IMG/VR virus record: IMGVR_UViG_2974629454_000001
Coordinates: 59,119-123,118 of that record
DNA length: 64,000 nt
Reading direction: 5' to 3' (one strand)
Source: Streptomyces virus LukeCage
Taxonomy: Duplodnaviria; Heunggongvirae; Uroviricota; Caudoviricetes
In this document: piece after piece, positions 27,849 through 49,673 of the stretch
How positions within the stretch are numbered: position 1 is the stretch's first letter
Layout of the letters: every line of letters starts with the position of its first letter
Position numbers and translations under genes: made by a program
Notes under the pieces: model-generated
The model's input: only the letters and a program-made list of their open reading frames with translations
Told to the model about the DNA's origin: nothing
Database searches by the model: none

Positions 27849-27923
27849 GCCCCGTTGGTCTAGTGGTTTAGGATACCGGACTTTCAATCCGTGTGAACGT
27901 CGGTTCGAATCCGACACGGGGTA
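27849..27923 (+). tRNA. tRNA-Glu(UUC)
   Basis: Acceptor gccccgt/acggggt (G1-U72); D region tggtctagtggtttagga is E. coli Glu-like; loop ctttcaa; T arm gtcggttcgaatccgac. Confidence 0.75.
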
Positions 27924-27991
27924 CGTGGGCCGTGACGCAACAAACTCTTTAGGAGAAAATCCTGTAGTGTACATGCAGGAACACGGCTTAT

Positions 27992-28064
27992 GCGGGTGTC
28001 GTCTAGCGGCAAAGGCTCCTGCCTTACAAGCAGGTAATCGGAGGTTCGAGTCCTCTCACCCGTA
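27992..28064 (+). tRNA. tRNA-Val(UAC)
   Basis: Acceptor gcgggtg/cacccgt (G1-U72); anticodon arm cctgc-cttacaa-gcagg; T arm ggaggttcgagtcctct. Confidence 0.7.
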
Positions 28065-28068
28065 CGCA

Positions 28069-28164
28069 GGAGAATTAAAAGTTCCGAAAAGTTGGTCACT
28101 CAGTAGGAACGTTTTACATGTGGGTCTAACCAGCCCGGTGCCGGGGTCGAATCCGGATTCTCCG
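28069..28164 (+). other. over-long (96 nt) tRNA-like gene, isotype unresolved
   Basis: Perfect 7-bp acceptor ggagaat/attctcc; T-like ccgg-ggtcgaat-ccgg; internal stem gttcc...ggaac encloses 19 nt. Confidence 0.35.
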
Positions 28165-28172
28165 TTAAGTTT

Positions 28173-28250
28173 GGGTCTGACAGGTGTGACGTTACTGAAA
28201 GCCGACAATGGACCGGTAACGGATAGTGGGTTCGACTCCCACCAGATCCA
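28173..28250 (+). other. tRNA-like gene (78 nt), internal arms unresolved
   Basis: Acceptor gggtctg/cagatcc; T arm gtgggttcgactcccac. Confidence 0.35.
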
Positions 28251-28271
28251 CAGATGATATATTCATCGTAT

Positions 28272-28345
28272 GCGCTCGTAGCCCAACGGCAGGAGGCACA
28301 AGGCTTAGACCCTTGGTAGTGTCGGTTCGAATCCGACCGGGCGTA
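28272..28345 (+). tRNA. class I tRNA with anticodon UAG (leucine codon CUA) but a short variable loop
   Basis: Acceptor gcgctcg/cgggcgt (G1-U72, A73); anticodon arm caagg-cttagac-ccttg; variable gtagt; T arm gtcggttcgaatccgac. Confidence 0.6.
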
Positions 28346-28358
28346 CGTAAGAATTGAT

Positions 28359-28439
28359 GGGCTCGTGGTGGAATGGTATACACGTTAGTCTTAGGAACTA
28401 ATGCCGAAAGGATTGTGAGTTCGAGTCTCACCGGGCCTA
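28359..28439 (+). tRNA. tRNA-Leu(UAG), class II
   Basis: Acceptor gggctcg/cgggcct; anticodon arm ttagt-cttagga-actaa; 12-13 nt variable arm; T arm gtgagttcgagtctcac. Confidence 0.65.
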
Positions 28440-28493
28440 CTTTGATGGTAAACGCGATATCATCAAATGCATATCAGGTCGCTCCTGATATGA

Positions 28494-28619
28494 GGAGTGT
28501 AGTTTAATTGGCAAAACCGCGAAATGCAATGTCGAACGGGAAGTGCTGCTGAGCTAAAGGCAGGTCTTACCTTAGTAGATATCAGAGTAGCAGTTGCGGG
28601 TTCGAGTCCCGTCACTCCG
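28494..28619 (+). other. 126-nt tRNA-like RNA: acceptor + D arm + T arm with about 50 nt inserted between the D and T regions
   Basis: ggagtg...cactcc acceptor; D arm gttt-aattggca-aaac; T arm gcgggttcgagtcccgt; two hairpins upstream (28441-28491). Confidence 0.3.
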
Positions 28620-28759
28620 CTAGCCTGAGATGACGATCCGATGTAGGTCCCCTAGGGCTTGCGCAGGCCCGAAGGGCATTCGGGAAAGGTGCCTAGCTAG
28701 GTCCGTCTACCAATAAGGTGAGAGTTTTTCACGGTTTTCCTCATAATTAAACCGTGTTT

Positions 28760-28832
28760 GGTCCTTTGGCAGAGATGGTAATGCACTCGGTTGAAGCCCG
28801 AGATATCTCAGTTCGATTCTGAGGGGGACCAC
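28760..28832 (+). tRNA. tRNA-Phe(GAA)
   Basis: Acceptor ggtcctt/ggggacc; loop ttgaagc; T arm ctcagttcgattctgag. Confidence 0.6.
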
Positions 28833-28835
28833 AAT

Positions 28836-28900
28836 GAATAAGCCAGGAACGGTTCGATTCCGTGTTACCTAGGTTGGTGTATGGCGCATAGGCTTATTCA
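28836..28900 (+). other. hairpin with a 9-bp stem enclosing a canonical T-arm motif (permuted tRNA-like)
   Basis: gaataagcc agga acggttcgattccgt ... aggcttattc. Confidence 0.4.
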
Positions 28901-28905
28901 GTAAT

Positions 28906-28976
28906 CCGCAGTGGTGAAATGGTATCATGCGACCTTGCCAAGGTTGTGGCGCGAGTTCGATTCTCGTCTGCGGGAC
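28906..28976 (+). tRNA. tRNA-Gly(GCC)
   Basis: cgaccttgccaaggttg and gcgagttcgattctcgt match the E. coli Gly(GCC) arms; acceptor tccgcag/ctgcggg. Confidence 0.7.
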
Positions 28977-28981
28977 TCTTG

Positions 28982-29054
28982 CCCCGGTAGCGTAGTGGAT
29001 AACGCGGCTGTCTTCTAAACAGTTATAGGCAGGTTCGATTCCTGTCCGGGGTAC
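28982..29054 (+). tRNA. tRNA-Arg(UCU)
   Basis: Acceptor gccccgg/ccggggt; D arm gcgt/acgc; anticodon arm gctgt-cttctaa-acagt; T arm gcaggttcgattcctgt. Confidence 0.65.
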
Positions 29055-29073
29055 TTTCTACATTGGAGGCAGC

Positions 29074-29259
29074 ATGCCTGTAACGATGACTGAGCTTTTT
29101 CTGGCCGGTGTGATTGAGCATCATGGCGTAGAGTCAAATGGCGAAGCTCTAGTGAAGATTAACTGGGATGTTCTTCGTGAATACAACTATGATCTCTATG
29201 TCCACATGAAGGCGGCGGAGATTGACGCCGACCTAGATGGTGATACAATGGAGCCATGA
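29074..29259 (+). CDS. hypothetical acidic protein
   Basis: ORF track. Confidence 0.4.
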   Translation: MPVTMTELFLAGVIEHHGVESNGEALVKINWDVLREYNYDLYVHMKAAEIDADLDGDTMEP

Positions 29260-29583
29260 ATACATACGAAGTAGCTGTAAGCCTATTGGTTACAGTGGAA
29301 GCACCCGATGAGTCAGATGCAAGAGAAGCTGTCCGCGATGCATTTGATGTTGGCGAGTTTTGCGGACTAGATGTCAAAGACGTAGAGGTTGAGATCCTTG
29401 AGTCTTGATTTCAATATGATCTCTAACATGGTTCAAGATGTAGAGTTCTTGCTTAAGTGTACATTCTGTCCAGAACCAGCAACTACAGAGTTGACAGTAG
29501 AAGTTGGACCTGATACAGTAGTACCAATGCCAAGCTGCGAAGCCTGTAAGGTTGCAGAGGCACAATGAGGCCGGAAGGCCAAT

Positions 29584-29655
29584 GGGCGATTAGTGTTAAT
29601 GGTAGCACGTCTGTTTTGCAAGCAGATAGAGGGGGTTCGAGTCCCCCATTGTCCA
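29584..29655 (+). tRNA. tRNA-Ala(UGC)
   Basis: Acceptor gggcgat/attgtcc with G3-U70; anticodon arm tctgt-tttgcaa-gcaga; T arm gggggttcgagtccccc. Confidence 0.75.
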
Positions 29656-29681
29656 CAACTTCCTGCGCAGGAGGTGTTAAC

Positions 29682-29756
29682 ATGAGTGTAGAACGAGTGC
29701 TCGTAGTAGTGATTCTAGTAGTTCTTGCAGCATGGCTTATCATGACGCTGCTGTAA
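29682..29756 (+). CDS. tiny hydrophobic peptide (24 aa)
   Basis: Perfect AGGAGG Shine-Dalgarno 6 nt upstream; MSVERVLVVVILVVLAAWLIMTLL. Confidence 0.3.
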   Translation: MSVERVLVVVILVVLAAWLIMTLL

Positions 29757-29819
29757 CAGAATTGGCTGGCCGATACGAACCCCATCGTATCCTTGCCCGA
29801 GGGTTAGGGACCAGCGCTT

Positions 29820-29894
29820 GCTCCAGTCGCACAATCTGGTCGTGCAACGGACTCTTAATCCGTGTGGATGTCGGTTCAAATCCGACCTGGAGTA
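29820..29894 (+). tRNA. tRNA-Lys(CUU)
   Basis: Acceptor gctccag/ctggagt; D arm gcac/gtgc; anticodon arm acgga-ctcttaa-tccgt; T arm gtcggttcaaatccgac. Confidence 0.7.
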
Positions 29895-29901
29895 CATAAA
29901 C

Positions 29902-29932
29902 CACCCTATTCCTTGTGAATAGGGTTTCTTTT
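29902..29932 (+). terminator. rho-independent terminator
   Basis: ccctattc cttgt gaataggg tttcttttt. Confidence 0.65.
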
Positions 29933-29951
29933 TATGCTACAATAGTTGTTA

Positions 29952-30505
29952 TGACTACACCAAAGAAGTACACACCAAAGCCCGGTGACATTGGGCTCAC
30001 TCGTATTGGTGGTCTCACAGGCATCCTAGTAGGTCTAGGGCAATTTATCATTAGAGACGCAAGCCGATACACTCATGTGTTTGTCGTATTGGACAACAAC
30101 GAGATCATCGAAGCTATGCCTGGCGGAGCCATCATCAGTCCAGTGGACAAGTATGCTGGAACTATGAAGTATGGCAGCCCACGCGCAGCCTACCTTGACA
30201 TCAAGTTGACAGCAGAGCAGCGAGCACGTATTGTAGAGGAAGCTAGACAGCTCGTAGGAACGCCTTACAGCTTTCTTGACTATGTTGCTCTAGCTCTGGA
30301 ACGATTTGGTTTCAATTGGAAGTGGCTAGAGAACTATGTCACATCTACCAAGCATATGATCTGCTCTCAGCTAGCTGATGAAGTATACAAGCGTGCTGGC
30401 GTTCACCTGTTTGAAGATGGTAGACTACCACAGAAGGTCACTCCTGGTGATCTTACCTACGTTGGAATGGACCAGCGATATGAAGAAGAACTGCCTGGGC
30501 TGTAA
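29952..30505 (+). CDS. permuted papain-fold peptidase/amidase (YiiX/NlpC-P60-like)
   Basis: GDIGLTR ... THVFVVL (His) ... ICSQLADEVYKRAG (Cys) occur in the order typical of a permuted papain fold. Confidence 0.5.
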
Positions 30506-30671
30506 GAAGGATAAGCCTGTCAGTGATTTTGGAAAGACTGGCATGGAGAAGGTCTTGTGCAAGAGCTGCCGACCTGCTAGAGTAGTTACCAGTGGAAAGA
30601 AGTCCGGTGGCAAGGGTATTGTTGATGCCATTGGTGACATCTTCGACGGGATCGGTGATCTGTTCTCTTGA
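30480..30671 (+). CDS. Zn-ribbon protein
   Basis: CLGCKKDK...CKSCRP. Confidence 0.45.
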   Translation: MKKNCLGCKKDKPVSDFGKTGMEKVLCKSCRPARVVTSGKKSGGKGIVDAIGDIFDGIGDLFS

Positions 30672-30861
30672 CAAGAACTAAGCTGCTTGCTATGCTGGAG
30701 AACAAAGCTAAGCTAGCAAAGAGGAAGATGTCAGAAGCCAATCAGCGTGATGATCGCATTGAGACTCGCGCCTATGCGGTAGAATTGACAGAAACAAATG
30801 CTTTTATACAAGCATTGAAGAGACTAACCAGTCTCAACTAGTAAGTGCCCGAAAGGGCTAT

Positions 30862-30938
30862 TCCCACGATACACCTGTGTGGCTCGGTGTAGCAGACTGT
30901 TAATCTGCCGGTCGCTGGTTCGACTCCAGCCGTGGGAG
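30862..30938 (+). tRNA. tRNA-Asn(GUU)
   Basis: Acceptor tcccacg/cgtggga (U1-A72, as in E. coli Asn); anticodon arm gcaga-ctgttaa-tctgc; T arm gctggttcgactccagc. Confidence 0.7.
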
Positions 30939-31473
30939 CTGGCCGCCAAAGCTTGAGGAGATAGCTACCTTGGGCAAGGATATGCATGGATGGTAACGTA
31001 AGTATTCTAGAACAGGCTTACGTGAGAGTAGATGCGAAACAGGGAGACAAGCCCTGCTACGGCCAACCACTTGACACACTAGCTATCACACACTAGGATG
31101 GAAACATGAACGAGATCGAAGCGTGGCTTCTTAATATCGAAGGTGTTCCTACCTGGAAGGGCCTCTATCGAGAAGAGGCTGTAGTAGTGAATAACGAAAT
31201 CTGGGTTTGGTTTAAGATTGACGAAGGGCAATGGGCTCTCCAGAAGCCACAATGGATCGTTATTCCTGACTGACTTAACTCACGGCACGTAGACTCTAAG
31301 ATCGAAGGGGTTTTACGTCTTTTCAAATCCCGGCGTCGAAGATGAAGAACAGTTTAGCGGCTGTACTTGTACAAGAGGAAGACGTTGAGTACAATCGTGC
31401 TAGAGTAAAAGAAGCTGACGGACAGCTTAGAGCAAGAGACCCGGCTCAAACGGGGAGTGCTGCATCCGACTAT

Positions 31474-31546
31474 GGCCTATAGCTTAATTGGCAGAGCGGT
31501 TGGTTGTTACCCAATCTGGTGCAGGTTCGAGTCCTGCTAGGTCAGC
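31474..31546 (+). tRNA. tRNA-Asn(GUU)-like second copy
   Basis: Acceptor tggccta/taggtca; D arm gctt/gagc; loop ttgttac; T arm gcaggttcgagtcctgc. Confidence 0.55.
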
Positions 31547-31573
31547 TCCAACAATGGCTAACAAAGGAAACAA

Positions 31574-32443
31574 ATGGCATATCTGGTATTCGCCATCATC
31601 ATGGTGGTAATTATCCTTGGCGGCGCAGCAGGTTATCTGTTCACTAAGGATAAGCTAGGTGTACTAGTAGCTGTTGGTGGCGTAGCGGTGCTAGGTGCTG
31701 TATCACTAATCTGGTCCATCACTAGCGTCGATAGTCGTAGCGTCGGTATCCAGACCTCATTTAATCGATACCAGGGAACACTTGACAGTGGTTTCCAGCT
31801 TACGGCTCCTTGGACAGAGCACGAAGACTTTACTACCCGCATTCAGTACCTCGATCTTGATGGTGAAAAGTGGTCCGATGGAGCACCTGTTACCTTTAAG
31901 GGCGGCGGTCGTGGTGTAGTCTTCGCAACCCCTCGCTGGAAGATCGATGAGGCTTCCGCTGGTAAGCTTTGGAACAAGTACAAGACTTTTGACAATGTTC
32001 AGGAGCAGCTTGTGCGTTCCTCAGTAAAGGATTCATTCCGAGCTGTGCTTACCGACTATACTCCGAATGAGGCTCGTGAGAATGTTCGTGAGATCACTGG
32101 AGCTGTTGAGAGGGATCTAGCCAAGACCCTTACTGATGATGGTATTAAGATCGACTCCATCAGCATTAAGGACATCAAGCTTGACGACCGCACTCAGGCT
32201 TCTCTGGACAAGATTGTTCAGGCCAACAACGATATTGAGCGTGCTCGTGCAGAGCAGGAGCGTGCAAAGATCGATGCTGAGACCTTGAAGATCAAGGAGA
32301 AGGCTGGTACTCTGTCTCAGTATGGTCAGTCAGACAAGTGTCTGACCATGATGGACAAGTGGGATGTCAAGAAGAACGGACATCTTCCGCCTGGCTTTAA
32401 TTGCAATGGTGGTCAGGTTCCGTTTACCGTCACTAACAAGTAA
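31574..32443 (+). CDS. SPFH/band-7 (stomatin/HflK-like) membrane protein
   Basis: N-terminal transmembrane helix followed by an SPFH-like core and a coiled-coil tail. Confidence 0.7.
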   Translation: MAYLVFAIIMVVIILGGAAGYLFTKDKLGVLVAVGGVAVLGAVSLIWSITSVDSRSVGIQTSFNRYQGTLDSGFQLTAPWTEHEDFTTRIQYLDLDGEKWSDGAPVTFKGGGRGVVFATPRWKIDEASAGKLWNKYKTFDNVQEQLVRSSVKDSFRAVLTDYTPNEARENVREITGAVERDLAKTLTDDGIKIDSISIKDIKLDDRTQASLDKIVQANNDIERARAEQERAKIDAETLKIKEKAGTLSQYGQSDKCLTMMDKWDVKKNGHLPPGFNCNGGQVPFTVTNK

Positions 32444-32446
32444 TGT

Positions 32447-32470
32447 CATGCCGCCCTTCGGGGCGGCTTT
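32447..32470 (+). terminator. rho-independent terminator
   Basis: gccgccc ttcg gggcggc ttttgg. Confidence 0.65.
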
Positions 32471-32499
32471 TGGCAGTTAGAGGCCCGGTGCAGAAGATG

Positions 32500-32528
32500 T
32501 TGACAGCACTCCCTGCCTCTAGTAGAGT
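32500..32528 (+). promoter_or_regulatory. sigma70-like promoter TTGACA-N17-TAGAGT(AGTA)
   Basis: Consensus -35, 17-bp spacer, conserved extended -10. Confidence 0.55.
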
Positions 32529-32590
32529 AGTAACTAAGCGAGCGAGGCAAAAGTATGGTATCCTTTAGTACACAATTAAAGGAGCCGTAT

Positions 32591-32758
32591 ATGCTTAAGT
32601 TTGCTAAGAGTCTAAAGCCTGGCGACGTAACGACGTATGGACGAATCGTTGCGAACCAGCTACTATGGACTAACAAGACTGTTCAGCTAACGATTGCTGA
32701 ACAGAGCGAGAACGTTTACCTGAAAAAGTATAAGATCGTTCGGACTAACAAGGGATAA
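32591..32758 (+). CDS. hypothetical protein
   Basis: AGGAG Shine-Dalgarno. Confidence 0.4.
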   Translation: MLKFAKSLKPGDVTTYGRIVANQLLWTNKTVQLTIAEQSENVYLKKYKIVRTNKG

Positions 32759-32761
32759 AAA

Positions 32762-33148
32762 TTGAGCATCGAAGACGACATTGCCAAGGAGATTGCGGGC
32801 GAGGCTGAGGCTGAGGCCGCTTCTGGTAAGTCATGGAAGAAGATTGCCGCTGAGGCAGCATGGAAGTTCTCAAAGGAAAAGGGCTATCCTGCATTCAAGG
32901 CTGGTGTAAAGTATCTTTACGCACAGGGTAAGGATATGAAGAACAAGCCTATGAAGCCCGGTGAGAAGAAGGCGTCAGCCCTTCGCCCTGGTGACATGAC
33001 TGTTCTTGGTCAGGTCTCAGAGGCTAAGCGAGACCCGATTCAGAAGAATAACTACCAGATCTCATTCATTTCCTCAACTGGGGTTAAGGTTGAGAGCGTG
33101 CCTGGCAACAAGAAGTTCGGCGTATTCGAGCGTCGAAGCATTCGTTGA
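32762..33148 (+). CDS. hypothetical Lys-rich protein (TTG start)
   Basis: ORF track; a ggccttcgggcc terminator hairpin follows. Confidence 0.45.
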   Translation: MSIEDDIAKEIAGEAEAEAASGKSWKKIAAEAAWKFSKEKGYPAFKAGVKYLYAQGKDMKNKPMKPGEKKASALRPGDMTVLGQVSEAKRDPIQKNNYQISFISSTGVKVESVPGNKKFGVFERRSIR

Positions 33149-33167
33149 TCGTCGGCCTTCGGGCCTA

Positions 33168-33239
33168 GTCTCCATAGTTTAATGGACAGAACGGTTGCCT
33201 CCTAAGCAACAGATTCCGGTTCGAATCCGGGTGGGGACA
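33168..33239 (+). tRNA. tRNA-Arg(CCU)
   Basis: Acceptor gtctcca/tggggac; anticodon arm gttgc-ctcctaa-gcaac; T arm tccggttcgaatccggg. Confidence 0.7.
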
Positions 33240-33241
33240 CG

Positions 33242-33270
33242 TTGACAGATCGGCCCGGTGAGGGTAGAGT
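33242..33270 (+). promoter_or_regulatory. sigma70-like promoter TTGACA-N17-TAGAGT(AGTT)
   Basis: Same family as the promoters at 32500 and 35742. Confidence 0.55.
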
Positions 33271-33321
33271 AGTTAACAGATCGAAGGTGAGCGTCTTGAA
33301 GCACACTACACTGGAGGTCAA

Positions 33322-33474
33322 ATGAAGGTTTGGGTTATCACCGAAGAGTGCGGATGTGGCTGGTACTCTGGAGAGGTGATCAAGGGTACATACTCTACGG
33401 AAGACAAGGCAAAGAAGGCGCTCGAAAAGATGGGCGACAGCTACCTTGAAATTCGTGAGTTGGAAGTAGAATAA
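33322..33474 (+). CDS. small Cys-containing protein (50 aa)
   Basis: GGAGG Shine-Dalgarno; ECGCGW. Confidence 0.45.
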   Translation: MKVWVITEECGCGWYSGEVIKGTYSTEDKAKKALEKMGDSYLEIRELEVE

Positions 33475-33489
33475 GCCCTTCGGGGTTAT

Positions 33490-33562
33490 GGGGTTGTAGC
33501 TCAATTGGAAGAGCATCTGCATGGCATGCAGAAGGTTGTGGGTTCGAGTCCCATCTTCTCCA
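33490..33562 (+). tRNA. tRNA-Ala(GGC) (two U-U mismatches in the acceptor)
   Basis: G3-U70 present; D arm gctc/gagc; anticodon arm tctgc-atggcat-gcaga; T arm gtgggttcgagtcccat. Confidence 0.5.
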
Positions 33563-33797
33563 CTCTTTTAATGGTTCTTCACAGAGGTGATAGTAACCAT
33601 GCGGGTCAGCTCTAGCAGGCTGATATTGGGTGCAAGGTAATAGCCCGTACACACCCCTTGCAGCAGACACACCACATGTGCTAGCATGGTCTGTAGATGG
33701 CAACGAGCTGGTAACTTGAAGCCATCGATTATTTCCCGAGGAACTGACGCGCTATGCGCTAAGCCTCTATTCGCTGTAAGGTACCTTGCAGCAACCA

Positions 33798-33870
33798 GCT
33801 CCGGTAGCTCAGTTGGTAGAGCAGTTGACTCTTAATCATCAGGTCCACGGTTCGAGTCCGTGTCGGAGTA
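33798..33870 (+). tRNA. tRNA-Lys(CUU)
   Basis: gcagttgactcttaatcatc resembles the E. coli Lys anticodon arm; acceptor gctccgg/tcggagt; T arm cacggttcgagtccgtg. Confidence 0.65.
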
Positions 33871-33883
33871 CAAAGCAAGGTTG

Positions 33884-33936
33884 CAAACTTGCTCAATCAT
33901 GTTGGGGTTCGATTCCCTCTGGTGAAACAACATGGT
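33884..33936 (+). other. structured element: nested inverted repeats enclosing a ggg-ttcgatt-ccc T-arm-like hairpin
   Basis: ctcaat catgttg gggttcgattccc ... caacatg ... attgag. Confidence 0.35.
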
Positions 33937-33995
33937 GTAATTGAGTAGGAAAAGGCGGCACCATTATGCGGTGCGCTGTCTAGCCTCTCTCTTAT

Positions 33996-34069
33996 GATCC
34001 AGTCGCACAATTGGCCGTGCAATGGGCTCTTAACCCTTGTGAATGTGAGTTCGAGTCTCACCTGGATCA
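33996..34069 (+). tRNA. tRNA-Lys(CUU) (paralogue of the 29820 gene)
   Basis: Acceptor gatccag/ctggatc; loop ctcttaa; T arm gtgagttcgagtctcac. Confidence 0.65.
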
Positions 34070-34253
34070 CGTTTGGAAGCAGGCAAGCATACGCCCCACG
34101 ACTAGCCCAGAAGCCTGTGTAAGCTAGTCCGGCATAGAAGCGGCGCAGACAAGGGAAGGGCCGCCAGGTGGGAGTACCGCTACAGTGTGGCGATTGTAGT
34201 AGGCACAAGGGATGAGACCACCAGCCAACATTAATTCAATTCTCTGGGGAGCT

Positions 34254-34424
34254 ATGGCTAACAACAAGGTATGGAAGGTCGGGGACAAAGTAAAGTCCAA
34301 CGACAACAAGTATAGTGGAACTGTCAGTAAGATCGTTGACGCCAATCATGTAAATGTTAACGTCAGTGGTCATGGAGATATGCAATTCCGTAACAGGGAG
34401 CTAAAGCGCCAGTTTGGTGGCTGA
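34254..34424 (+). CDS. small KOW-like protein
   Basis: Shine-Dalgarno GGGGAG; KVWKVGDKVKS. Confidence 0.45.
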   Translation: MANNKVWKVGDKVKSNDNKYSGTVSKIVDANHVNVNVSGHGDMQFRNRELKRQFGG

Positions 34425-34432
34425 GGCCCTAT

Positions 34433-34507
34433 GATTCCTTAGCTCAGTTGGTAGAGCACCAGACTTTTAATCTGTTGTGGTCCTCGGTTCGAGTCCGAGA
34501 GGAATCA
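34433..34507 (+). tRNA. tRNA-Lys(UUU)
   Basis: Perfect acceptor gattcct/aggaatc; D arm gctc/gagc; loop cttttaa; T arm ctcggttcgagtccgag. Confidence 0.7.
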
Positions 34508-34508
34508 C

Positions 34509-34655
34509 GTGAAGAATGGTGATATAGTCAAGATAACGGAAGGCCCGAATAAGGGTAAGTCGGGCATAATAGAAGGTAAGGCTGGTAAGACCTACATTGT
34601 TAGGACAAATTCAGGCACCTACTACGTTCACGAAAATCATGTAAAACCTGTTTGA
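34509..34655 (+). CDS. small KOW-domain protein (GTG start)
   Basis: KNGDIVKITEGPNKGKSGII is a classical KOW motif. Confidence 0.4.
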   Translation: MKNGDIVKITEGPNKGKSGIIEGKAGKTYIVRTNSGTYYVHENHVKPV

Positions 34656-42155: not shown

Positions 42156-42170
42156 AGCTGTCATAAGCAT

Positions 42171-43003: not shown

Positions 43004-43005
43004 AA

Positions 43006-43269
43006 TTGGCCGGTAACAAGAACAGCCGTAAGAAGTGGCTTTGTCTTGACTGCGGTGTTGACACTGGTAGGATTGGCGAACACTTCTTTCTGATCAACGA
43101 TGTCTGGTCCTTGACAGGGCTTGGACACAAGGGTATGCTCTGTGTAGAGCACGTTGAGAAGCGCATCGGCAGGCGTCTTGTTCCGGCCGATTTTGCTTCT
43201 GTATGGATTAATGGACCGCGAGGCGGAACGAAGAGTCAGCGCCTTGCCAATCGATTGGGATATAAATGA
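43006..43269 (+). CDS. Zn-finger protein
   Basis: CLDCG...CVEH. Confidence 0.5.
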   Translation: MAGNKNSRKKWLCLDCGVDTGRIGEHFFLINDVWSLTGLGHKGMLCVEHVEKRIGRRLVPADFASVWINGPRGGTKSQRLANRLGYK

Positions 43270-43490
43270 GTGCTGGTCTTCGCACAGTTGACATCTTCGA
43301 TGAGATGCGTGCAAAGTCTAAGGGTGAATATGTAGAGACTGTCAACGGATTTGAAATCTGGGATGTTGGCACGCATGGTCACAGCACATACATGCTTTTT
43401 AAGCGGCGGGGCAAGCAGATGTTCATGTCTACAGGCTCCTTCTCCCCTTTGAGTTATGCTCAAAGGTTGGCAAGAGAAACAAAGCTGTGA
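43266..43490 (+). CDS. hypothetical protein
   Basis: ORF track. Confidence 0.45.
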   Translation: MSAGLRTVDIFDEMRAKSKGEYVETVNGFEIWDVGTHGHSTYMLFKRRGKQMFMSTGSFSPLSYAQRLARETKL

Positions 43491-43666
43491 AGTCTCTAGG
43501 CATTAAAGTTGGCGATACAGTCTGTGACTGTCGCTTCCTTCACCTAAAGGTCTTGAAGATCTGGCCCGATGGTGATACAGTGTCACTAGAAGATGGATCA
43601 AGTTGCTCCATCAGACATTGCTTGGATGCCGCTGATCACGAATGGCAGCATCCAGAAAACTACTAA
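43487..43666 (+). CDS. small KOW-like protein (GTG start)
   Basis: GIKVGDTV; GTGA overlap with the upstream stop. Confidence 0.35.
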   Translation: MKSLGIKVGDTVCDCRFLHLKVLKIWPDGDTVSLEDGSSCSIRHCLDAADHEWQHPENY

Positions 43667-43678
43667 CCTGGAGGACCG

Positions 43679-44755
43679 ATGAAGTTCACCAAGATCTTCT
43701 CACAGGAGTTGCTTGACGAGATGATCTCAGAGGGCTATGTCCGGGCGCAGTTTCATCCGGTCCTGCCTCTCAAGATTCTCAACTACTCTGAGAAGACTCA
43801 GTTCGCTGGAAAGTGGAACGACTGCACGCTTAACTGTCGTGGGTTGATCGTTGATCTCGACGGCAACTTGATTGCTCGTCCTTTCATGAAGTTCTTCAAC
43901 TTGGGTGATTCTCAGTCCGCACAACTTGACTGGGACGCTCCGGTTGAGGTTACGGACAAGAAGGACGGATCAATGGGAGTCCTGTACTCCTATGGTGGTC
44001 AGTTGGCGATTGCTACTCGTGGATCATTCATGTCAGATCAGGCAATCCACGGTACTCGTATTCTTAACGAGCGCTACAGCCACATTCAGTTCGTCTCAGA
44101 CTACACATTTATCTTCGAGATCGTTTACCCTGAGAACAGGATTGTTCTGGACTACGGTTCAATGGACGACCTGATTCTTCTGGGTGCGGTTCACAAGGAA
44201 TACGGTTACGTTTGTGGTCCTCTGGAGGCTCAGGCAATTGTAGATTGGGACGGGCCGGTGACGGAGGTCTTCAATTACAGCTCATTGCGTGAGGCGTCTG
44301 GAGCGCAGTACAGGAAGAACGCAGAGGGTTTCGTAGTCCGCTCTGGCAACAAGATGGTCAAGATCAAGCAGGCAGATTACGTTGAGCTGCACCGCATGAT
44401 CTCCATGCTTTCAGAGCGTTCCGTATGGAGTCAGCTTACCGAGGGCAAGACGATTCTTGAGATTTGTGAGGCACTGCCTGACGAGTTCCACGGATTTGTC
44501 AAGGACGTTGGTGGCAAGCTCCTTGAGGACTACGAGCGCATTGAGGTTGAGGTTTATGGTATCTACCAGAACCTTCTAACTTCTCTGGGCGAGGGCTTCA
44601 CGCGACGTGATTTCGCAATGGCTGCAAACCGAATTGATCTCTACAGGTCTCACATGTTCAACCTGCTTGACGGGAAGAGCATCAATGAGCTAATCTGGAA
44701 GCAGATCAGGCCGGAAGCCAAGCGAGAGGACGTACACCCTACCAATGCGGGCTAA
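43679..44755 (+). CDS. ATP-dependent RNA ligase, Rnl2-like nucleotidyltransferase
   Basis: Motif I TDKKDGSMG (KxDG), motif IV NAEGFVVRS (EGFVV) and motif V MVKIKQADY; Shine-Dalgarno GGAGGA. Confidence 0.7.
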   Translation: MKFTKIFSQELLDEMISEGYVRAQFHPVLPLKILNYSEKTQFAGKWNDCTLNCRGLIVDLDGNLIARPFMKFFNLGDSQSAQLDWDAPVEVTDKKDGSMGVLYSYGGQLAIATRGSFMSDQAIHGTRILNERYSHIQFVSDYTFIFEIVYPENRIVLDYGSMDDLILLGAVHKEYGYVCGPLEAQAIVDWDGPVTEVFNYSSLREASGAQYRKNAEGFVVRSGNKMVKIKQADYVELHRMISMLSERSVWSQLTEGKTILEICEALPDEFHGFVKDVGGKLLEDYERIEVEVYGIYQNLLTSLGEGFTRRDFAMAANRIDLYRSHMFNLLDGKSINELIWKQIRPEAKREDVHPTNAG

Positions 44756-45035
44756 CGAGGAATGGCGTAAAGATCCTCGTCGTAGGTCACTGGCCGAGCA
44801 CCTTTGCAAGAAGCGTGCTCGGCTGTACCTTATGATGATCGAAGATCTTGAGCGCGCACAAAGAAGTCTCCGAATGATTCAGGAGACTAAAGAAGAGATT
44901 CCGAATGCCGCCAACGGATATCGAGCAATGAATTTCGCTTTCGATATCGAAGAGGCCCGGCGCAAGTACAATCACTACAACAACCCCACAGAAACCCTAA
45001 TAGGCAACATGGCTGCCTTCGGAGAGGGAGCATAA
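44745..45035 (+). CDS. hypothetical protein
   Basis: ORF track. Confidence 0.45.
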   Translation: MRANEEWRKDPRRRSLAEHLCKKRARLYLMMIEDLERAQRSLRMIQETKEEIPNAANGYRAMNFAFDIEEARRKYNHYNNPTETLIGNMAAFGEGA

Positions 45036-45093
45036 TGAACGAGTTTATTGCTAAGCACCCTGTTGCATTCGCTGTCACATTCTTTGTGATCGG

Positions 45094-45300
45094 ATGGATT
45101 ATCGGGTGAATGAAGCAAGAAGGAAGGCACAAGCAGCAGTTGGCAAGGGCAAGTGTGTAAGTCTTGCTGGTCTTCCAATAGGATGCGGAGCGTCAGTCTC
45201 AGAAAATGATTTCCGAGACGAACTCTCCAAGAGGGAGTATAAGATCTCTGGTCTCTGCCAGTCTTGTCAAGACAGATTTGAGGCGATGCTTGATGAGTGA
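45094..45300 (+). CDS. hypothetical Cys-containing protein
   Basis: ORF track. Confidence 0.4.
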   Translation: MDYRVNEARRKAQAAVGKGKCVSLAGLPIGCGASVSENDFRDELSKREYKISGLCQSCQDRFEAMLDE

Positions 45301-45391
45301 AAAGAACTTCGTCTGCATGGATTGCGGAACTCCGTTTCCAAATCATCAGCCCACGTGCCCTTGGCACCCTAACAACCTAGGCAAGAAGTGA
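45206..45391 (+). CDS. small Zn-ribbon protein (likely starts at ATG 45294)
   Basis: CMDCG...CPWH. Confidence 0.35.
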   Translation: MISETNSPRGSIRSLVSASLVKTDLRRCLMSEKNFVCMDCGTPFPNHQPTCPWHPNNLGKK

Positions 45392-45503
45392 TCGCACTGA
45401 CAGCAGGTCTCGTTATCGGGACCTGCGTCTTTGTTTACGGACTCATAGATGGGTTGACAGACAGAGGCAGGCGCGATAGTCTGGTTACAGATCGAACGAA
45501 GGA

Positions 45504-46400
45504 GTGAAGATGCAGCTTCTCATCCTCCGGGGAATTCCCGGTTGTGGTAAGAGCACTTGGGCGCATGATGTGTGGCTCAAGGAAAACCCGAATGGTGTTC
45601 GAGTCAATCGTGATGACATTCGTATGCAGCTCTTTGGCCGGGAGACCGGAGTAGACGAGGAGCTTGTTACTCGAATTGAGCACGGAATGGTGGATGGGGC
45701 TCTGTCAAAGGGCTACTCTGTCGTTGTCGATGACACGAACATTCGACACAAGTACATCAAGGAATTCGTCAAGATCGGTCAGCGCCATGGTGCTAGTGTT
45801 TCAGTTAAGCAGTTTGACGTTTCACTTGAGACGGCAATTCAGCGAAACACTGTTCGTGCTGCACTCGGTGGTCGAGACGTTCCTGAGTCTGTCATTCGCA
45901 AGATGCACCAGTCCATGAAGTCTAGTGGAGTTTTCACTGACTTCCACACAAGCGTTACGGCTGTTCGTCCTTACGATCGTCCCGAAGGTGCAGAGAAGGT
46001 TTACCTCTTTGACATTGATGGCACGCTTGCTGAGATGAACACTCGTGATCCTTTCTACTGGAAGGGTGTTGGCGAGGACGATCCGCGACGACAGGTGATC
46101 ATCACTGCTCAGGCTCATGCTAAGGCAGGATACAAGATCATCGTTATGAGCGGTCGAGATGGCTCATGCCGCAATGAAACAATCGCTTGGCTGGAACTCT
46201 ACGACATTCCTTTCTCAGAATTGCACATGCGTGCTGAGGGGGACATGCGTAAGGACTCTGTCGTCAAGCAAGAGCTGTTCGATGAGCACATTCGTGACAT
46301 CTATGATGTTGTGGCTGTGTACGATGATCGTCAGCAGGTTGTTGACATGTGGCGTGCGATGGGCATAGACTGTTTCCAGGTAGCACCCGGAAACTTCTGA
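45504..46400 (+). CDS. polynucleotide 5'-kinase/3'-phosphatase (T4 Pnk-like)
   Basis: N-terminal P-loop GIPGCGKST; C-terminal HAD motifs VYLFDIDGTLAE, IIVMSGRD and AVYDDRQQ. Confidence 0.8.
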   Translation: MKMQLLILRGIPGCGKSTWAHDVWLKENPNGVRVNRDDIRMQLFGRETGVDEELVTRIEHGMVDGALSKGYSVVVDDTNIRHKYIKEFVKIGQRHGASVSVKQFDVSLETAIQRNTVRAALGGRDVPESVIRKMHQSMKSSGVFTDFHTSVTAVRPYDRPEGAEKVYLFDIDGTLAEMNTRDPFYWKGVGEDDPRRQVIITAQAHAKAGYKIIVMSGRDGSCRNETIAWLELYDIPFSELHMRAEGDMRKDSVVKQELFDEHIRDIYDVVAVYDDRQQVVDMWRAMGIDCFQVAPGNF

Positions 46401-46432
46401 CAAAAGGGAGCTTCGGCTCCCTTTTGTTGTTT
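46401..46432 (+). terminator. rho-independent terminator
   Basis: aaagggagc ttcg gctcccttt tgttgttt. Confidence 0.65.
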
Positions 46433-46441
46433 GGAGAATAA

Positions 46442-46630
46442 ATGGAAATTGTAGGAATAATTGCAGTCACCCTGATATTCGGATACCTTGCTCTCATTGG
46501 TATTGCAATCAATTTCATTCCTGCCGAAATGAATGCGTATCAAAGATTGATTGCTCTGGCATGGTCTGCTGCATGGGTGTGGCTCTGGTGGATAGTTGTA
46601 GGATCTGACATACATGTGACGGTGAACTGA
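46442..46630 (+). CDS. small membrane protein
   Basis: Two hydrophobic helices. Confidence 0.45.
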   Translation: MEIVGIIAVTLIFGYLALIGIAINFIPAEMNAYQRLIALAWSAAWVWLWWIVVGSDIHVTVN

Positions 46631-46836
46631 TGTTGCCAAACCCCGAGAAGTACACTAACATCTATACATACCAGACCAGAGAATGGGTAGTCCTTGGGAC
46701 GGATGGGTATCGTCCTGAAACTATTAAGTCTGGCTTCAAGAGCCAAGAGCTTGCAGAAGCCTGGATGAGAGTGTATCTTGAGAACTACGTCAAGCAGAAT
46801 ATGTTGCGCGGCGACGAAGAGTACGAACTGTCTTGA
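46630..46836 (+). CDS. hypothetical protein
   Basis: ORF track. Confidence 0.45.
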   Translation: MLPNPEKYTNIYTYQTREWVVLGTDGYRPETIKSGFKSQELAEAWMRVYLENYVKQNMLRGDEEYELS

Positions 46837-46861
46837 CAGCAACACTCCAGCACGATAGAGT
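46833..46861 (+). promoter_or_regulatory. sigma70-like promoter TTGACA-N17-TAGAGT(AGTA)
   Basis: Same family as the promoters at 32500, 33242 and 35742. Confidence 0.55.
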
Positions 46862-46890
46862 AGTATCAACAACAACGACGAAGGGTCGAA

Positions 46891-47322
46891 ATGAAGACTA
46901 AGCTTATCCCGTCCGTTATCGCTGGTGCGGTTGTCAGTGCAGTTGTGCTGACAGGCTGCAAGGAAGCGAGCAACGAATTTAAGCAGGACTGCAAGCAGCG
47001 CGGCGGCAAGGTTGTTCGTGAGGACGACTTCGAGGGCGAATACCTCGGTATGGCTCCGATGGCTTTTGGTCTGCCGAAGCCTCCTGCTCCCGTCAAGCCT
47101 GCTGCTCCAAAGGTTCCGAAGGCACCGAAGGTTGACAAGCTTCCCAAGAATGATGCTCCGAAGCCTGCAAAGCCGAAGACTTCTAAGCCTGACACTGTAA
47201 ACGGAAACGATCTGGCCTTTGGTGACACTACAAAGCCGAAGAAGGCCAAGAAGCCGAAGAAGGACGACAACGACTTCCTTTGCGTGAAGAATGGCGAAGT
47301 GCTGTTCGAAGAAGACGAGTAA
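46891..47322 (+). CDS. lipoprotein with Pro/Lys-rich PKxP repeats
   Basis: Lipobox LTGC; repeats PKPPAPVKPAAPKVPKAPK; the antisense 262-aa ORF is judged spurious. Confidence 0.6.
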   Translation: MKTKLIPSVIAGAVVSAVVLTGCKEASNEFKQDCKQRGGKVVREDDFEGEYLGMAPMAFGLPKPPAPVKPAAPKVPKAPKVDKLPKNDAPKPAKPKTSKPDTVNGNDLAFGDTTKPKKAKKPKKDDNDFLCVKNGEVLFEEDE

Positions 47323-47348
47323 GATCAACTACTAACGAAAGCTGATCA

Positions 47349-47747
47349 ATGGGACTAATGGATTTCCTCACCGGAGTTGGTAATCCCCTAAGTGCGACTT
47401 CACGCGCTGGGCGAAAGCTAGAAAATGAAGCGCTCCGGTGGGCGTGTAATCGATGCAAGCTGCACACTCCATATTATGTCCGAGCTGAGATTGCTGATCG
47501 GCATAAGGCTACTTATGCTGGCACTAATCCTGACGGATATGTCTACATGGAGTATGTATTCACCAAGAAGAGTCTGGTTCATAAGATTCCGATGACTGAT
47601 TACGGAACCCGTGCGAATCAGATCTATTACTACTACAATGGTGAAATTACTGACAAGCGGCCGAAGAACTATCTGACAAAGAAGCAGCTTCGGGACCTTG
47701 AGGCTCGCATCATGAAGGAGTGTCAGGAAGGTTTCACCTTCGACTGA
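47349..47747 (+). CDS. hypothetical protein
   Basis: ORF track. Confidence 0.5.
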   Translation: MGLMDFLTGVGNPLSATSRAGRKLENEALRWACNRCKLHTPYYVRAEIADRHKATYAGTNPDGYVYMEYVFTKKSLVHKIPMTDYGTRANQIYYYYNGEITDKRPKNYLTKKQLRDLEARIMKECQEGFTFD

Positions 47748-47908
47748 TGGCAAAGTACACAGAGGGCGATAAGGTTGAATTCATCCGAGGTCGCCTGGAT
47801 GGTAAAAAGGGTAAGGTCAAGTTCGTCACCGCTCACGGCAAGTTGCTTGTTGACTTGAATGAGGGTGGGGATGTATACTGTAACCCAGAAGATGTTAAGC
47901 CTGCGTAA
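47747..47908 (+). CDS. small KOW-domain protein
   Basis: EGDKVEFIRGRLDGKKGKVKFV is a KOW motif; a hairpin follows. Confidence 0.45.
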   Translation: MAKYTEGDKVEFIRGRLDGKKGKVKFVTAHGKLLVDLNEGGDVYCNPEDVKPA

Positions 47909-47917
47909 GCAGGCCCC

Positions 47918-47999
47918 GCGCCCATGGTGGAATGGCAGACACACTAGGCTGAGACCCTAGGCTCGAATGAGCGTCCGAGTTCGATTCTCGGTGGGCGTA
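47918..47999 (+). tRNA. tRNA-Leu(GAG), class II
   Basis: Acceptor gcgccca/tgggcgt; anticodon arm ctagg-ctgagac-cctag; variable-arm hairpin gctc-gaat-gagc; T arm ccgagttcgattctcgg. Confidence 0.7.
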
Positions 48000-48000
48000 C

Positions 48001-48204
48001 ATGGCAAGATACAGAGTGGGTCAGCAAATTGTTGTAACACAATTTGTTCAAAAGGGCGTTGAGTATGCTGGACGCCGGGGCTTTGTTGAGATTGTAGAGA
48101 GCCGAGGACGCTATACGGTTCTTCTTTATGAAACAGAGTACAATGGGATTAAGGTCCCTGAATGCACTATCGATGTCAGGGAAAACAATATCCGAAAAGC
48201 TTAA
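48001..48204 (+). CDS. small KOW-like protein
   Basis: ORF track. Confidence 0.45.
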   Translation: MARYRVGQQIVVTQFVQKGVEYAGRRGFVEIVESRGRYTVLLYETEYNGIKVPECTIDVRENNIRKA

Positions 48205-48339
48205 GGAAGTAAAATGAGCTGGTGGGCAATCGTTCTCATTACGCTTGGCTGCGTGGCATCAGTCGGCATTGGTTTGTTTGTATACGCAATGATCCGGATC
48301 ACTAAGTCTCCCGGCAACTGGGGACTCTGAAAGGATAAA

Positions 48340-48561
48340 ATGAACACCGATTTCAAGAAGTTCGTAGAGGCTGGGAAGATCCTCGGCACGATGGTTCTTG
48401 ATGTTGCTGAACTTGTTCTTCTTGCTCGTAAGGCTGACATTGCACAGCGCAAGGCGGCTGAGGCGTACATGAGCGCTTACGAGGAGCAAAAGGGTAAGGT
48501 CAAGAACAAGGAGGACTGGACCGTCTTCTACAATGGCGTGAAGAAGCGTCTGACGGTTTGA
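48340..48561 (+). CDS. hypothetical protein
   Basis: ORF track. Confidence 0.45.
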   Translation: MNTDFKKFVEAGKILGTMVLDVAELVLLARKADIAQRKAAEAYMSAYEEQKGKVKNKEDWTVFYNGVKKRLTV

Positions 48562-48587
48562 ACAATGGGAGTGGCAACACTCCACCA

Positions 48588-48658
48588 ACCCGCTTAGTTC
48601 AATGGTAGAGCGCCTGCTCGACACGCAGGGGACGGGAGTTCGATTCTCCCAGTGGGTA
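48588..48658 (+). tRNA. tRNA-Val(GAC)
   Basis: Acceptor acccgct/agtgggt; anticodon arm cctgc-tcgacac-gcagg; T arm gggagttcgattctccc. Confidence 0.65.
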
Positions 48659-48680
48659 CTCCATCGACCGAAGGGTTTCA

Positions 48681-49118
48681 ATGAATCTCATTCGAGCCGA
48701 GCGCCTTGCGCGCGACCTTATGTGGGAATTCGACCTCTTCACTAGAGGTTGGGATTTTGGTTGGAATCGTATGGTGAAGACATACGGAACGACTTACCAC
48801 GTCCAGAAGATGATTAAGCTGTCAAAGACCTGCACTCCGAATCTTACGGAAGATCAGGTTGACAACGTAATCCGACATGAAATTGCACACGCTCTGGTTG
48901 GGCCGGGGCATGGTCACAATGCAATTTGGCGGGCAAAGGCAATCGAGATTGGTTGCACGGGAAATACCTGTGAAAACTACACTCCTGCTACGCCAAAGTG
49001 GAAGGCTGTTTGTCCTAATGGGCATACTGCTGGAACACGTTACCGACGACCGGCGCGAGGTAGAATCCTTGTTTGTGCCGTTCATCGCAAGCAAGTTGAT
49101 TGGGTAGCTAATGGATAA
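48681..49118 (+). CDS. SprT-like Zn metalloprotease with a C-terminal Zn ribbon
   Basis: HEIAHAL matches HExxH; CPNGH...CAVH. Confidence 0.65.
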   Translation: MNLIRAERLARDLMWEFDLFTRGWDFGWNRMVKTYGTTYHVQKMIKLSKTCTPNLTEDQVDNVIRHEIAHALVGPGHGHNAIWRAKAIEIGCTGNTCENYTPATPKWKAVCPNGHTAGTRYRRPARGRILVCAVHRKQVDWVANG

Positions 49119-49311
49119 GAACGAAGTAAAGGTCGCTCTCATTGTTGCGTCAGTGTTCATTGCACTGTTTGCAACAATCGGAATCGCTGTCAACTACAAT
49201 GATTACCTAAAGAATCAGACCATTCAGAAGTGTATTGCTTCTGACAAGGTCTGGGGCGAAGGCTCCTGTGTTGACAACGTAGAAGATCTCAAGTATATTG
49301 ATAATGACTGA
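49111..49311 (+). CDS. small membrane protein
   Basis: N-terminal transmembrane helix. Confidence 0.45.
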   Translation: MDKNEVKVALIVASVFIALFATIGIAVNYNDYLKNQTIQKCIASDKVWGEGSCVDNVEDLKYIDND

Positions 49312-49579
49312 ACACGACAACGTTAGGAACAGCATGCATTCCTCTGAACACCCTCTTGCTCGCACGACTGTGACTGTTAAGTCTGGTCCTTATGCTGGCA
49401 AGCAGTACGAGATTGAAGACTGGTTTGACCGTGTCGTGGGTACCTCATGGAAGAATCTTGTTTTCCGTGGACATGGCGCTGCGATGCAATACGAGATGTC
49501 AGGACAGACTAAGGATGATGAAGTTCTCTATGGAAAGATTGGTGGCTTCGGCTACGCAATCAACGTAGAGCACATCTGA
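49298..49579 (+). CDS. hypothetical protein
   Basis: ORF track; a ggccgaaaggcc hairpin follows. Confidence 0.45.
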   Translation: MIMTEHDNVRNSMHSSEHPLARTTVTVKSGPYAGKQYEIEDWFDRVVGTSWKNLVFRGHGAAMQYEMSGQTKDDEVLYGKIGGFGYAINVEHI

Positions 49580-49599
49580 TAAAAGGCCGAAAGGCCGAT

Positions 49600-49673
49600 G
49601 GCCCTGTAGCAGAATGGTATATGCGGCGGTCTCAAAAACCGCGTCAATGTGGGTTCGAGTCCCATCAGGGCTA
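49600..49673 (+). tRNA. class I tRNA with anticodon CAA (leucine codon UUG), short variable loop
   Basis: Acceptor ggccctg/cagggct (G1-U72, A73); perfect anticodon arm gcggt-ctcaaaa-accgc; T arm gtgggttcgagtcccat. Confidence 0.55.

Follow-up and report, generated by a model that had tools for sequence, protein, structure and literature searches.

A 64,000-nucleotide stretch of DNA (hereafter the window) was found to be 100% identical to Streptomyces phage LukeCage (MH590597.1, position 1 of the window being record position 59119), a phage of cluster BE and genus Karimacvirus whose host is S. griseus. In its large tRNA array, 12 of the 42 tRNAs begin with a G1·U72 wobble pair and continue with A73 and an encoded C74. 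Each part of this pattern corresponds to ordinary tRNA biology, known from the host and other phages and displayed here with unusual clarity, and it reveals neither a new system nor a defence mechanism. Our preferred reading, to which a probability of about 65% was given, is that three ordinary layers are superimposed: C74 as the 3'-end format of the host, a leader of the type favoured by RNase P and a G1·U72-A73 variant of the acceptor end belonging to the tRNAs of class I aminoacyl-tRNA synthetases (class I tRNAs). Mildly new are the near-saturation of class I tRNAs with G1·U72, the inclusion of Lys, which matches a class I lysyl-tRNA synthetase (LysRS), and the presence of U72 where the host has C72.

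The ARAGORN analysis revealed 42 tRNAs and one transfer-messenger RNA (tmRNA), located on the + strand throughout, between 13105 and 57042. The acceptor strands and flanks of every tRNA were taken from the ARAGORN bracket structures and the isotypes were assigned from the anticodons. A first-pass annotation of the sequence had listed eleven tRNAs with G1·U72, all of which were borne out by ARAGORN, as was the presence of A73 and C74 after each such pair (12/12). It had missed Arg-UCU at 28981, and the interval that it gave for the group (27849-49673) leaves out Ile-UAU (17471) and Glu-CUC (27224). The acceptor register was verified by structural alignment to the Rfam tRNA covariance model. In the four Infernal alignments inspected (Glu-CUC, Arg-UCU, Glu-UUC and Val-UAC), the outer pair was G-U and the discriminator A, with maximal posterior probability, U and not C being placed opposite G1, which ruled out an off-by-one register. 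Scores of 54.7-66.1 bits were obtained for 11 of the 12 G·U tRNAs, relative to the RF00005 gathering score of 29.

The wobble was specific to the end of the stem. G·T at pair 1-72 was detected in 12/42 tRNAs, compared with a mean of ~3% over 19 other stem positions (binomial p = 4e-9); this set excludes 1-72 and 49-65, and each position in it holds between zero and six G·T. Only pair 49-65, a classical G·U site, was comparable to 1-72 (11/42). The G1·U72 pattern exceeds chance and is statistically solid. Other irregular first pairs were seen in class II tRNAs, namely a G1xA72 mismatch in Thr-GGU (37941-38013), present in 7/10 orthologues, and a reversed wobble U1·G72 in Gly-GCC (28905-28976), present in 11/11.

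All 12 G·U tRNAs carry anticodons for Leu, Ile, Val, Met, Arg, Glu or Lys. Lys is no longer an exception in this list because the LysRS of Streptomyces is a class I enzyme: S. coelicolor and S. avermitilis encode LysRS1 and have lost the class II form (PMC1475646). If Lys is placed in class I, G1·U72 was carried by 12 class I and no class II tRNAs of the window, and G1-C72 by five and 10, respectively (Fisher p = 3.6e-4). The G1-C72 tRNAs of the phage were mostly class II, with the addition of Tyr and Cys. The 15 BE-like loci together held ~130 G·U tRNAs, of which only one, the Phe gene of Coruscant, was class II.

The same bias was observed in viral tRNAs unrelated to LukeCage. The set comprised 655 unique tRNAs from 120 viral IMG/VR contigs (L098-L217) fetched by a generic D-arm word, and 10.2% of them had G1·U72. 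The G·U pair occurred in 58 class I and four class II tRNAs and the G-C pair in 115 and 230, respectively (odds ratio 29, p = 4.6e-20), Lys (G·U in only 2/31) being tallied apart from both classes. The most frequent G·U isotypes were Leu (16/49), Glu (15/30), Arg (9/36) and Val (6/13), with further class I cases among Ile (4), Met (3), Trp (2), Gln (2) and Cys (1), and none was found among Ala (0/22), Gly (0/40), Ser (0/47) or Thr (0/51). A73 was present in 55/67 G·U tRNAs of this set. Since the bias recurs in unrelated viral tRNAs, the class restriction is a general tRNA property, and the earlier proposal of an identity feature finds support in this general sense, G1·U72 being bound to class I tRNAs in both sets. 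The G·U content of LukeCage (12/42) was nevertheless higher than the 10% of the unrelated set (p = 8e-4), and so was the share of U72 among class I G1-Y72 tRNAs (12/17 versus 58/173, p = 0.004). The BE phages are at the high end of a general class-restricted wobble. Among class I tRNAs, no significant association of G·U with the lack of an encoded CCA was detected (35/87 CCA-less versus 23/86 CCA-encoding, p = 0.08).

The comparison was extended to 15 BE-like loci, whose anchor protein was 60-100% identical; 12 of these loci came from IMG/VR and were anchored on the band-7 protein (60-96% identity). G1·U72 was present in 13/42 tRNAs of Jay2Jay (Samistivirus) and 12/41 of Coruscant (Coruscantvirus), with C74 in 41/42 and 39/41, respectively. 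The 12 IMG/VR loci had G·U in 25-41% of their tRNAs and C74 in essentially all of them. In the orthologue groups, the state at position 72 was kept per isoacceptor while pairs 2-7 changed. U72 was fixed in Arg-UCU (10/10, across six distinct 2-7 stems), Glu-CUC (10/10), Glu-UUC (11/11), Val-UAC (13/13) and Ile-GAU (5/5) and present in 19/20 Leu-UAG orthologues, and C72 was fixed in Ala, Asp, Ser, Thr-UGU, His, Tyr and Lys-UUU and present in 15/16 Phe and 13/14 Cys orthologues. The change from U72 to C72 is a single transition giving a perfect pair, and its absence over this divergence points to selection rather than drift. Such conservation argues that position 72 is held in its state by purifying selection.

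C74 was encoded in all 42 tRNAs, and not only in most of them as stated earlier; the tmRNA and the additional Tyr gene at 36558 encode it too. A full CCA had been attributed to Gly(UCC) only. It was actually found in three genes (Gly-UCC at 13105, a Met-like tRNA at 35938 and Ala-GGC at 41524), the remaining 39/42 genes being CCA-less. Host genes were read at 80 Streptomyces loci around bldC and at two around rpmG, the latter reached from a protein search followed by inspection of the contigs. At bldC, C74 was carried by all 291 genuine tRNA genes, 20 of which encoded CCA, and C74 was also present in all six genes at rpmG (Thr, Met, Trp). In S. coelicolor, 53/65 tRNA genes lack an encoded CCA (PMC4681348). 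According to the differential RNA-seq data for this species, CCA-encoding genes are cut between C74 and C75 ('C|CA'; PMC4681348 text and Table S4) and CCA-less genes directly 3' of C74 ('GCAC|gc', 'CTAC|tc', 'GTAC|ag', 'CGAc|tc'), with C72, U72, G72 and A72 alike (Table S4); RNase Z or RNase E are the candidate 3' endonucleases (PMC4681348). Because the cut falls after C74, a working tRNA gene in this host must encode C74. C74 without CCA is the host format, which the phage follows. This format is not confined to Streptomyces, as C74 was also frequent in unrelated viral tRNA genes without CCA (240/310, 77%), and several unrelated contigs had C74 in every tRNA and no CCA (20/20 in L114, 24/24 in L123 and 19/19 in L197). 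Encoding the first C of CCA alone appears to be widespread well beyond Streptomyces phages. With regard to a phage CCA-adding enzyme, the window yielded only the RlaP-like match of gp109, which was sub-threshold (22.3 bits, cut-off 23).

The 5' flanks were biased over the whole array, with T at -1 in 31/42 and A at -2 in 27/42 genes. Among the 12 G·U tRNAs, A(-2)T(-1) was present in seven, and the longer (C/T)AT, reported in the first-pass annotation to precede most of them, in only three. As the bias runs through all 42 tRNAs, it does not set the G·U tRNAs apart, and the 655 unrelated viral tRNAs showed U(-1) in 60% and A(-2) in 56%. A(-2)U(-1) is the usual leader preference of bacterial RNase P. 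For C74 and the flanks, the suggested common processing feature found support, but as a rule of the host.

The G1·U72 end was also found in the host. Host Glu-UUC had G1-C72 in 62/69 Streptomyces species and G1·U72 in six, one Lys-UUU gene had G1·U72-A73-C74, and the Met and Trp genes next to rpmG had A1-U72. In S. coelicolor, C72 is listed for Glu-UUC, Lys-CUU, Leu-CAA, Leu-GAG and Val-GAC (PMC4681348 Table S4). The host comparison that had been recommended earlier gave a divided answer, with the same end in some Glu-UUC genes and one Lys-UUU gene but C72 or A1-U72 in others. The phage shares the motif with its host and uses it in more isoacceptors. The occurrence of U72 in the 3'-context table of S. 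coelicolor was rejected as proof of a host G·U pair, since the Met gene at rpmG is A1-U72.

Cellular counterparts are known outside Streptomyces as well. In E. coli, G1·U72 is found in two tRNA-Leu isoacceptors, which behave normally with LeuRS, and a change of the first pair altered the editing rates of this enzyme modestly (PMC3203616). The identity elements of rice mitochondrial tRNA-Trp include G1·U72. Actinobacterial tRNA-Glu is described as having U72 and A73 and as being recognised by the lantibiotic dehydratase MibB (Ortega et al. 2016, as cited in a passage of PMC7672478). In the passages searched of PMC6182185, the 1-72 pair and base 73 are proposed to encode the groove used by the synthetase, class I enzymes are stated to require that the 3' terminus form a hairpin, and a swap of grooves is described for Tyr, Trp and Phe; according to a passage of PMC2018626, A-U at 1-72 is excluded from class II tRNAs. 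The G-C pair fixed in Tyr of the BE-like phages fits the groove swap. The passages searched of PMC6182185 and PMC2018626 did not single out G1·U72 and did not mention phage tRNAs or the case of Lys and LysRS1.

In the preferred reading, a Streptomyces precursor is cut endonucleolytically after C74 and the CCA-adding enzyme adds C75 and A76. The phage precursors would be cut at the same place by the host endonuclease and finished by the host CCA-adding enzyme, and the A(-2)U(-1) leader would serve RNase P, going by the known preferences of this enzyme. G1·U72 with A73 would be an acceptor end that is open to class I tRNAs alone and that they favour in this phage. Class I enzymes, which come from the minor-groove side and have to bend the 3' end into a hairpin, may tolerate or favour the weak G·U cap, which class II enzymes reading G1-C72 would counter-select; class II tRNAs hold G1-C72, and so does tRNA-Tyr, whose enzyme binds the major groove. 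A weak terminal pair would ease fraying or hairpinning of the 3' end. The BE lineage has pushed U72 to most class I tRNAs, even where the host has C72. Mutation pressure towards adenine and thymine (AT), in a phage with 48% guanine plus cytosine, was probably of help here, since no other stem position accepts a wobble without loss of function, and it probably accounts for the lineage being close to the maximum that is permitted.

Several points weigh against this reading. Cys, Tyr, Arg-CCU, Arg-UCG and Arg-ACG, all class I, keep strong 1-72 pairs, so the rule is permissive and not obligatory. Some orthologue groups are mixed (Arg-CCU with 10 G-C and four G·U, Leu-GAG with three G·U and two G-C, and also Lys-CUU), and one Phe and one Cys orthologue are G·U; such switching of state fits partial neutrality. 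The isotypes are those predicted from the anticodons, and isoacceptors that share a genome do not count as independent in the statistics. The host is only partly covered: seven isoacceptors were read directly, and the Gln/Glu-CUC cluster and the Lys-CUU, Leu, Val, Ile and Arg genes lay outside the direct reading. The difference between phage U72 and host C72 in Glu-UUC, Lys-CUU, Leu-CAA and Leu-GAG is explained by composition only. The hairpin and fraying rationale is a hypothesis taken over from the literature rather than a demonstrated effect of G·U.

In a purely neutral account, C72-to-U72 transitions accumulate by drift towards AT, since G·U still pairs, and the pattern has no function. 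It agrees with the guanine-plus-cytosine (GC) content of the phage window (46-53%, versus ~72% in the host), with the mixed orthologue groups and with U72 at positions where the host has C72 (Glu-UUC in 62/69 species; Lys-CUU, Leu-CAA and Leu-GAG in S. coelicolor). Drift alone, however, does not explain why the wobble is restricted to 1-72, when other stem positions have ~3% G·U, or why class II G·U is absent from the window and found once (Phe of Coruscant) in 15 loci. It also does not explain why U72 stayed fixed across divergent phages though pairs 2-7 were replaced several times, or why the host itself, despite its high GC content, retains G·U in some tRNAs. We regard it as unlikely, with a modest chance of being correct. 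Another idea, that the BE lineage positively selected U72 in nearly all of its class I tRNAs, also against a C72 of the host, as a phage device giving a kinetic edge with host class I synthetases including LysRS1 or an escape from a putative actinobacterial toxin of tRNA acceptor ends, is considered doubtful. The class I LysRS of Streptomyces was acquired horizontally.

A processing role, in which the 1-72 wobble, flanked by U(-1) and A73, directs RNase P or the 3' endonuclease to the correct cleavage sites, for instance by blocking a U(-1)-A73 pair, was judged improbable. All G·U tRNAs do have A73, most with a U(-1) able to pair with it, and a mitochondrial mutation from A1-U72 to G1·U72 is described in a passage of PMC4936059 as lowering 5' processing, which makes this pair relevant to RNase P, but the same array contains G1-C72/A73 tRNAs with U(-1) (Phe, Ala, Lys-UUU and Tyr), presumably handled by the same enzymes, the host cut after C74 is indifferent to base 72, and the class I restriction is not predicted. 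The anti-nuclease adaptation proposed in the first-pass annotation would make G1·U72-A73 a poor substrate for an acceptor-end toxin (an RNase or a nucleotidyltransferase of the MenT/AbiEii type), so that translation continues. The RNA-repair set of the phage (Ro60-like, weak RlaP-like, Rnl1-like ligase and Pnkp) shows RNA damage to act as a selective pressure. Whether the acceptor-cleaving toxin CdiA-CT EC869 cuts is decided by the 1-72 pair and N73, and in four or more isoacceptors the phage has another base 72 than the host. The claim nevertheless failed, as the same end occurs in host Glu(UUC) of six species, in host Lys(UUU), in E. coli tRNA-Leu and in 10% of unrelated viral tRNAs. Its distribution tracks the synthetase class and no known toxin specificity, and G1-C72 is as poor a substrate of CdiA-CT EC869 as G1·U72, leaving G·U without an advantage. 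No Streptomyces acceptor-end toxin was identified, although none was searched for. Such an adaptation is considered very improbable.

The features of the window are collected in Table 1. Beyond the ARAGORN calls, Rfam gave the annotated Tyr gene and two odd tRNA-like elements. The Tyr gene (35.3 bits) is in the GenBank record and was missed by ARAGORN, and Ser-UGA at 18596-18684 is unannotated in that record. The GenBank notes of the tRNAs at 47918, 48588 and 49600 give the codon for the anticodon, i.e. Leu(ctc), Val(gtc) and Leu(ttg). Small hypothetical coding sequences overlap tRNA genes, gp160 (31342-31482) on Asn and gp186 (37972-38136) on Thr. The Met-like tRNA lies two bases downstream of tRNA-Met and is without the three G-C pairs that usually mark the anticodon stem of an initiator; its orthologues have U1xC72 or A1xC72.

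Table 1. Coordinates of the tRNA array, the G1·U72 tRNAs and other features of the LukeCage window.
Feature	Coordinates	Strand	Remarks
tRNA array	13105..57042	+	42 ARAGORN tRNAs, extra Tyr gene 36558-36629, one tmRNA; C74 in all, CCA in 3
tRNA-Ile(UAU)	17471..17545	+	G1·U72, A73, C74
tRNA-Glu(CUC)	27224..27300	+	G1·U72, A73, C74; Infernal alignment
tRNA-Glu(UUC)	27849..27924	+	G1·U72, A73, C74; Infernal alignment
tRNA-Val(UAC)	27992..28065	+	G1·U72, A73, C74; Infernal alignment
tRNA-Leu(UAG), short variable loop (type I shape)	28272..28346	+	G1·U72, A73, C74
tRNA-Leu(UAG), long variable region	28359..28440	+	G1·U72, A73, C74
tRNA-Arg(UCU)	28981..29054	+	G1·U72, A73, C74; Infernal alignment
tRNA-Lys(CUU)	29820..29895	+	G1·U72, A73, C74
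tRNA-Lys(CUU)	33798..33871	+	G1·U72, A73, C74
tRNA-Met(CAU), elongator-like	35862..35935	+	G1·U72, A73, C74
tRNA-Leu(GAG)	47918..48000	+	G1·U72, A73, C74; ARAGORN alone, not among Rfam matches
tRNA-Leu(CAA), short variable loop	49600..49674	+	G1·U72, A73, C74
tRNA-Gly(UCC)	13105..13178	+	full CCA encoded; G1-C72, U73
Met-like tRNA(CAU)	35938..36009	+	A1xC72 mismatch, C73, encoded CCA; not in GenBank annotation
tRNA-Ala(GGC)	41524..41597	+	U1-A72, G73, encoded CCA
tmRNA	39564..39842	+	tRNA-like end G1-C72, A73, C74
Ro60-like protein (TROVE + vWA domains)	21844-23472
Weak RlaP-like nucleotidyltransferase (gp109)	14741-15262		sub-threshold match
T4 Rnl1-like RNA ligase	43679-44755
Pnkp (kinase + phosphatase)	45510-46400

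Other tRNAs of the array also showed traits related to charging. All Gln and Asn tRNAs (at 13308, 30862, 31473 and 56962) begin with U1-A72, the pair by which GatCAB amidotransferase recognises its tRNAs in bacteria lacking GlnRS or AsnRS. It is another sign of phage tRNAs built for the charging pathways of the host. The tRNAs with Leu anticodons at 28272-28346 (UAG) and 49600-49674 (CAA) have the type I shape, uncommon in tRNA-Leu of bacteria. In S. coelicolor, a type I tRNA-Leu(CAA) is present and is charged by the LeuRS of this species (PMC6614811), and by this analogy the type I Leu tRNAs look like a further host-matched trait; for the type I Leu(UAG), no host counterpart has been reported.

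The RNA-repair genes of Table 1 are interleaved with the tRNA array. No Rfam match to a Y RNA was obtained beside the Ro60 gene, in the region 21250-24650. Directly 3' of the RlaP-like nucleotidyltransferase gene, a tRNA-like element without a D arm was located at 15280-15356 (+). It has an anticodon-loop-like CUGAUAA, an 18-nucleotide variable region, U1-A72, A73 and C74, scored 30.3 bits relative to the Rfam tRNA gathering score of 29 and is kept in Jay2Jay (89%) and Coruscant (79%). It is possibly a tRNA mimic tied to the RNA-repair or Ro genes. The other element, a tRNA-like gene of 128 nucleotides at 28493-28620 (+), has normal acceptor, D and T arms, with a 71-nucleotide insert in place of the anticodon arm and an A1xG72 mismatch. 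It scored 32.5 bits against the Rfam tRNA model, was called neither by ARAGORN nor in GenBank and is conserved, with 71-93% identity, in at least nine related phages.

Taken together, the C74 format, U1-A72 on Gln and Asn, the type I Leu tRNAs and the G·U-capped Lys tRNAs suggest an array tailored to the maturation and charging machinery of the host, and such signatures could aid host prediction and the annotation of tRNA ends in actinophages. With about 42 tRNAs under AT pressure, the LukeCage array reveals where a wobble at 1-72 is tolerated, namely in class I tRNAs only, and serves as a small natural experiment for ideas on class-specific recognition of the acceptor stem.

Among known systems, the chromosomal tRNA genes of Streptomyces share with the phage the universal C74, the mostly missing CCA, U1-A72 on Gln and Asn, a type I tRNA-Leu(CAA) and G1·U72-A73-C74 in Lys-UUU and some Glu-UUC. 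They differ in having C72 in most Glu-UUC and in Lys-CUU, Leu-CAA and Leu-GAG, A1-U72 in Met and stems far richer in GC than those of the phage. The tRNA-Leu of E. coli likewise combines G1·U72 and A73 with normal aminoacylation and editing by a class I LeuRS (PMC3203616), but its full CCA is encoded and the wobble occurs in two Leu isoacceptors, compared with seven amino-acid families in the phage. The class-specific acceptor rules also separate class I from class II tRNAs by the 1-72 pair and base 73, although in the passages searched of PMC6182185 and PMC2018626 they are coded as purine/pyrimidine or A-U. In the MibB system, as presented in a passage of PMC7672478, a U72-A73 acceptor end on actinobacterial tRNA-Glu is read by an enzyme of secondary metabolism, and nothing there suggests relevance to the phage.

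The tRNAs of phage T5 have changes in the anticodon loop, and a T5 tRNA-Lys neutralises PARIS. As in this type of defence escape, the phage set of LukeCage differs from that of the host at specific nucleotides, and RNA repair enzymes are present. The T5-type changes, however, affect the anticodon loop, a known cleavage site, whereas the change in LukeCage affects the acceptor end, recurs in tRNAs of the host and in unrelated tRNAs and is bound to the synthetase class.

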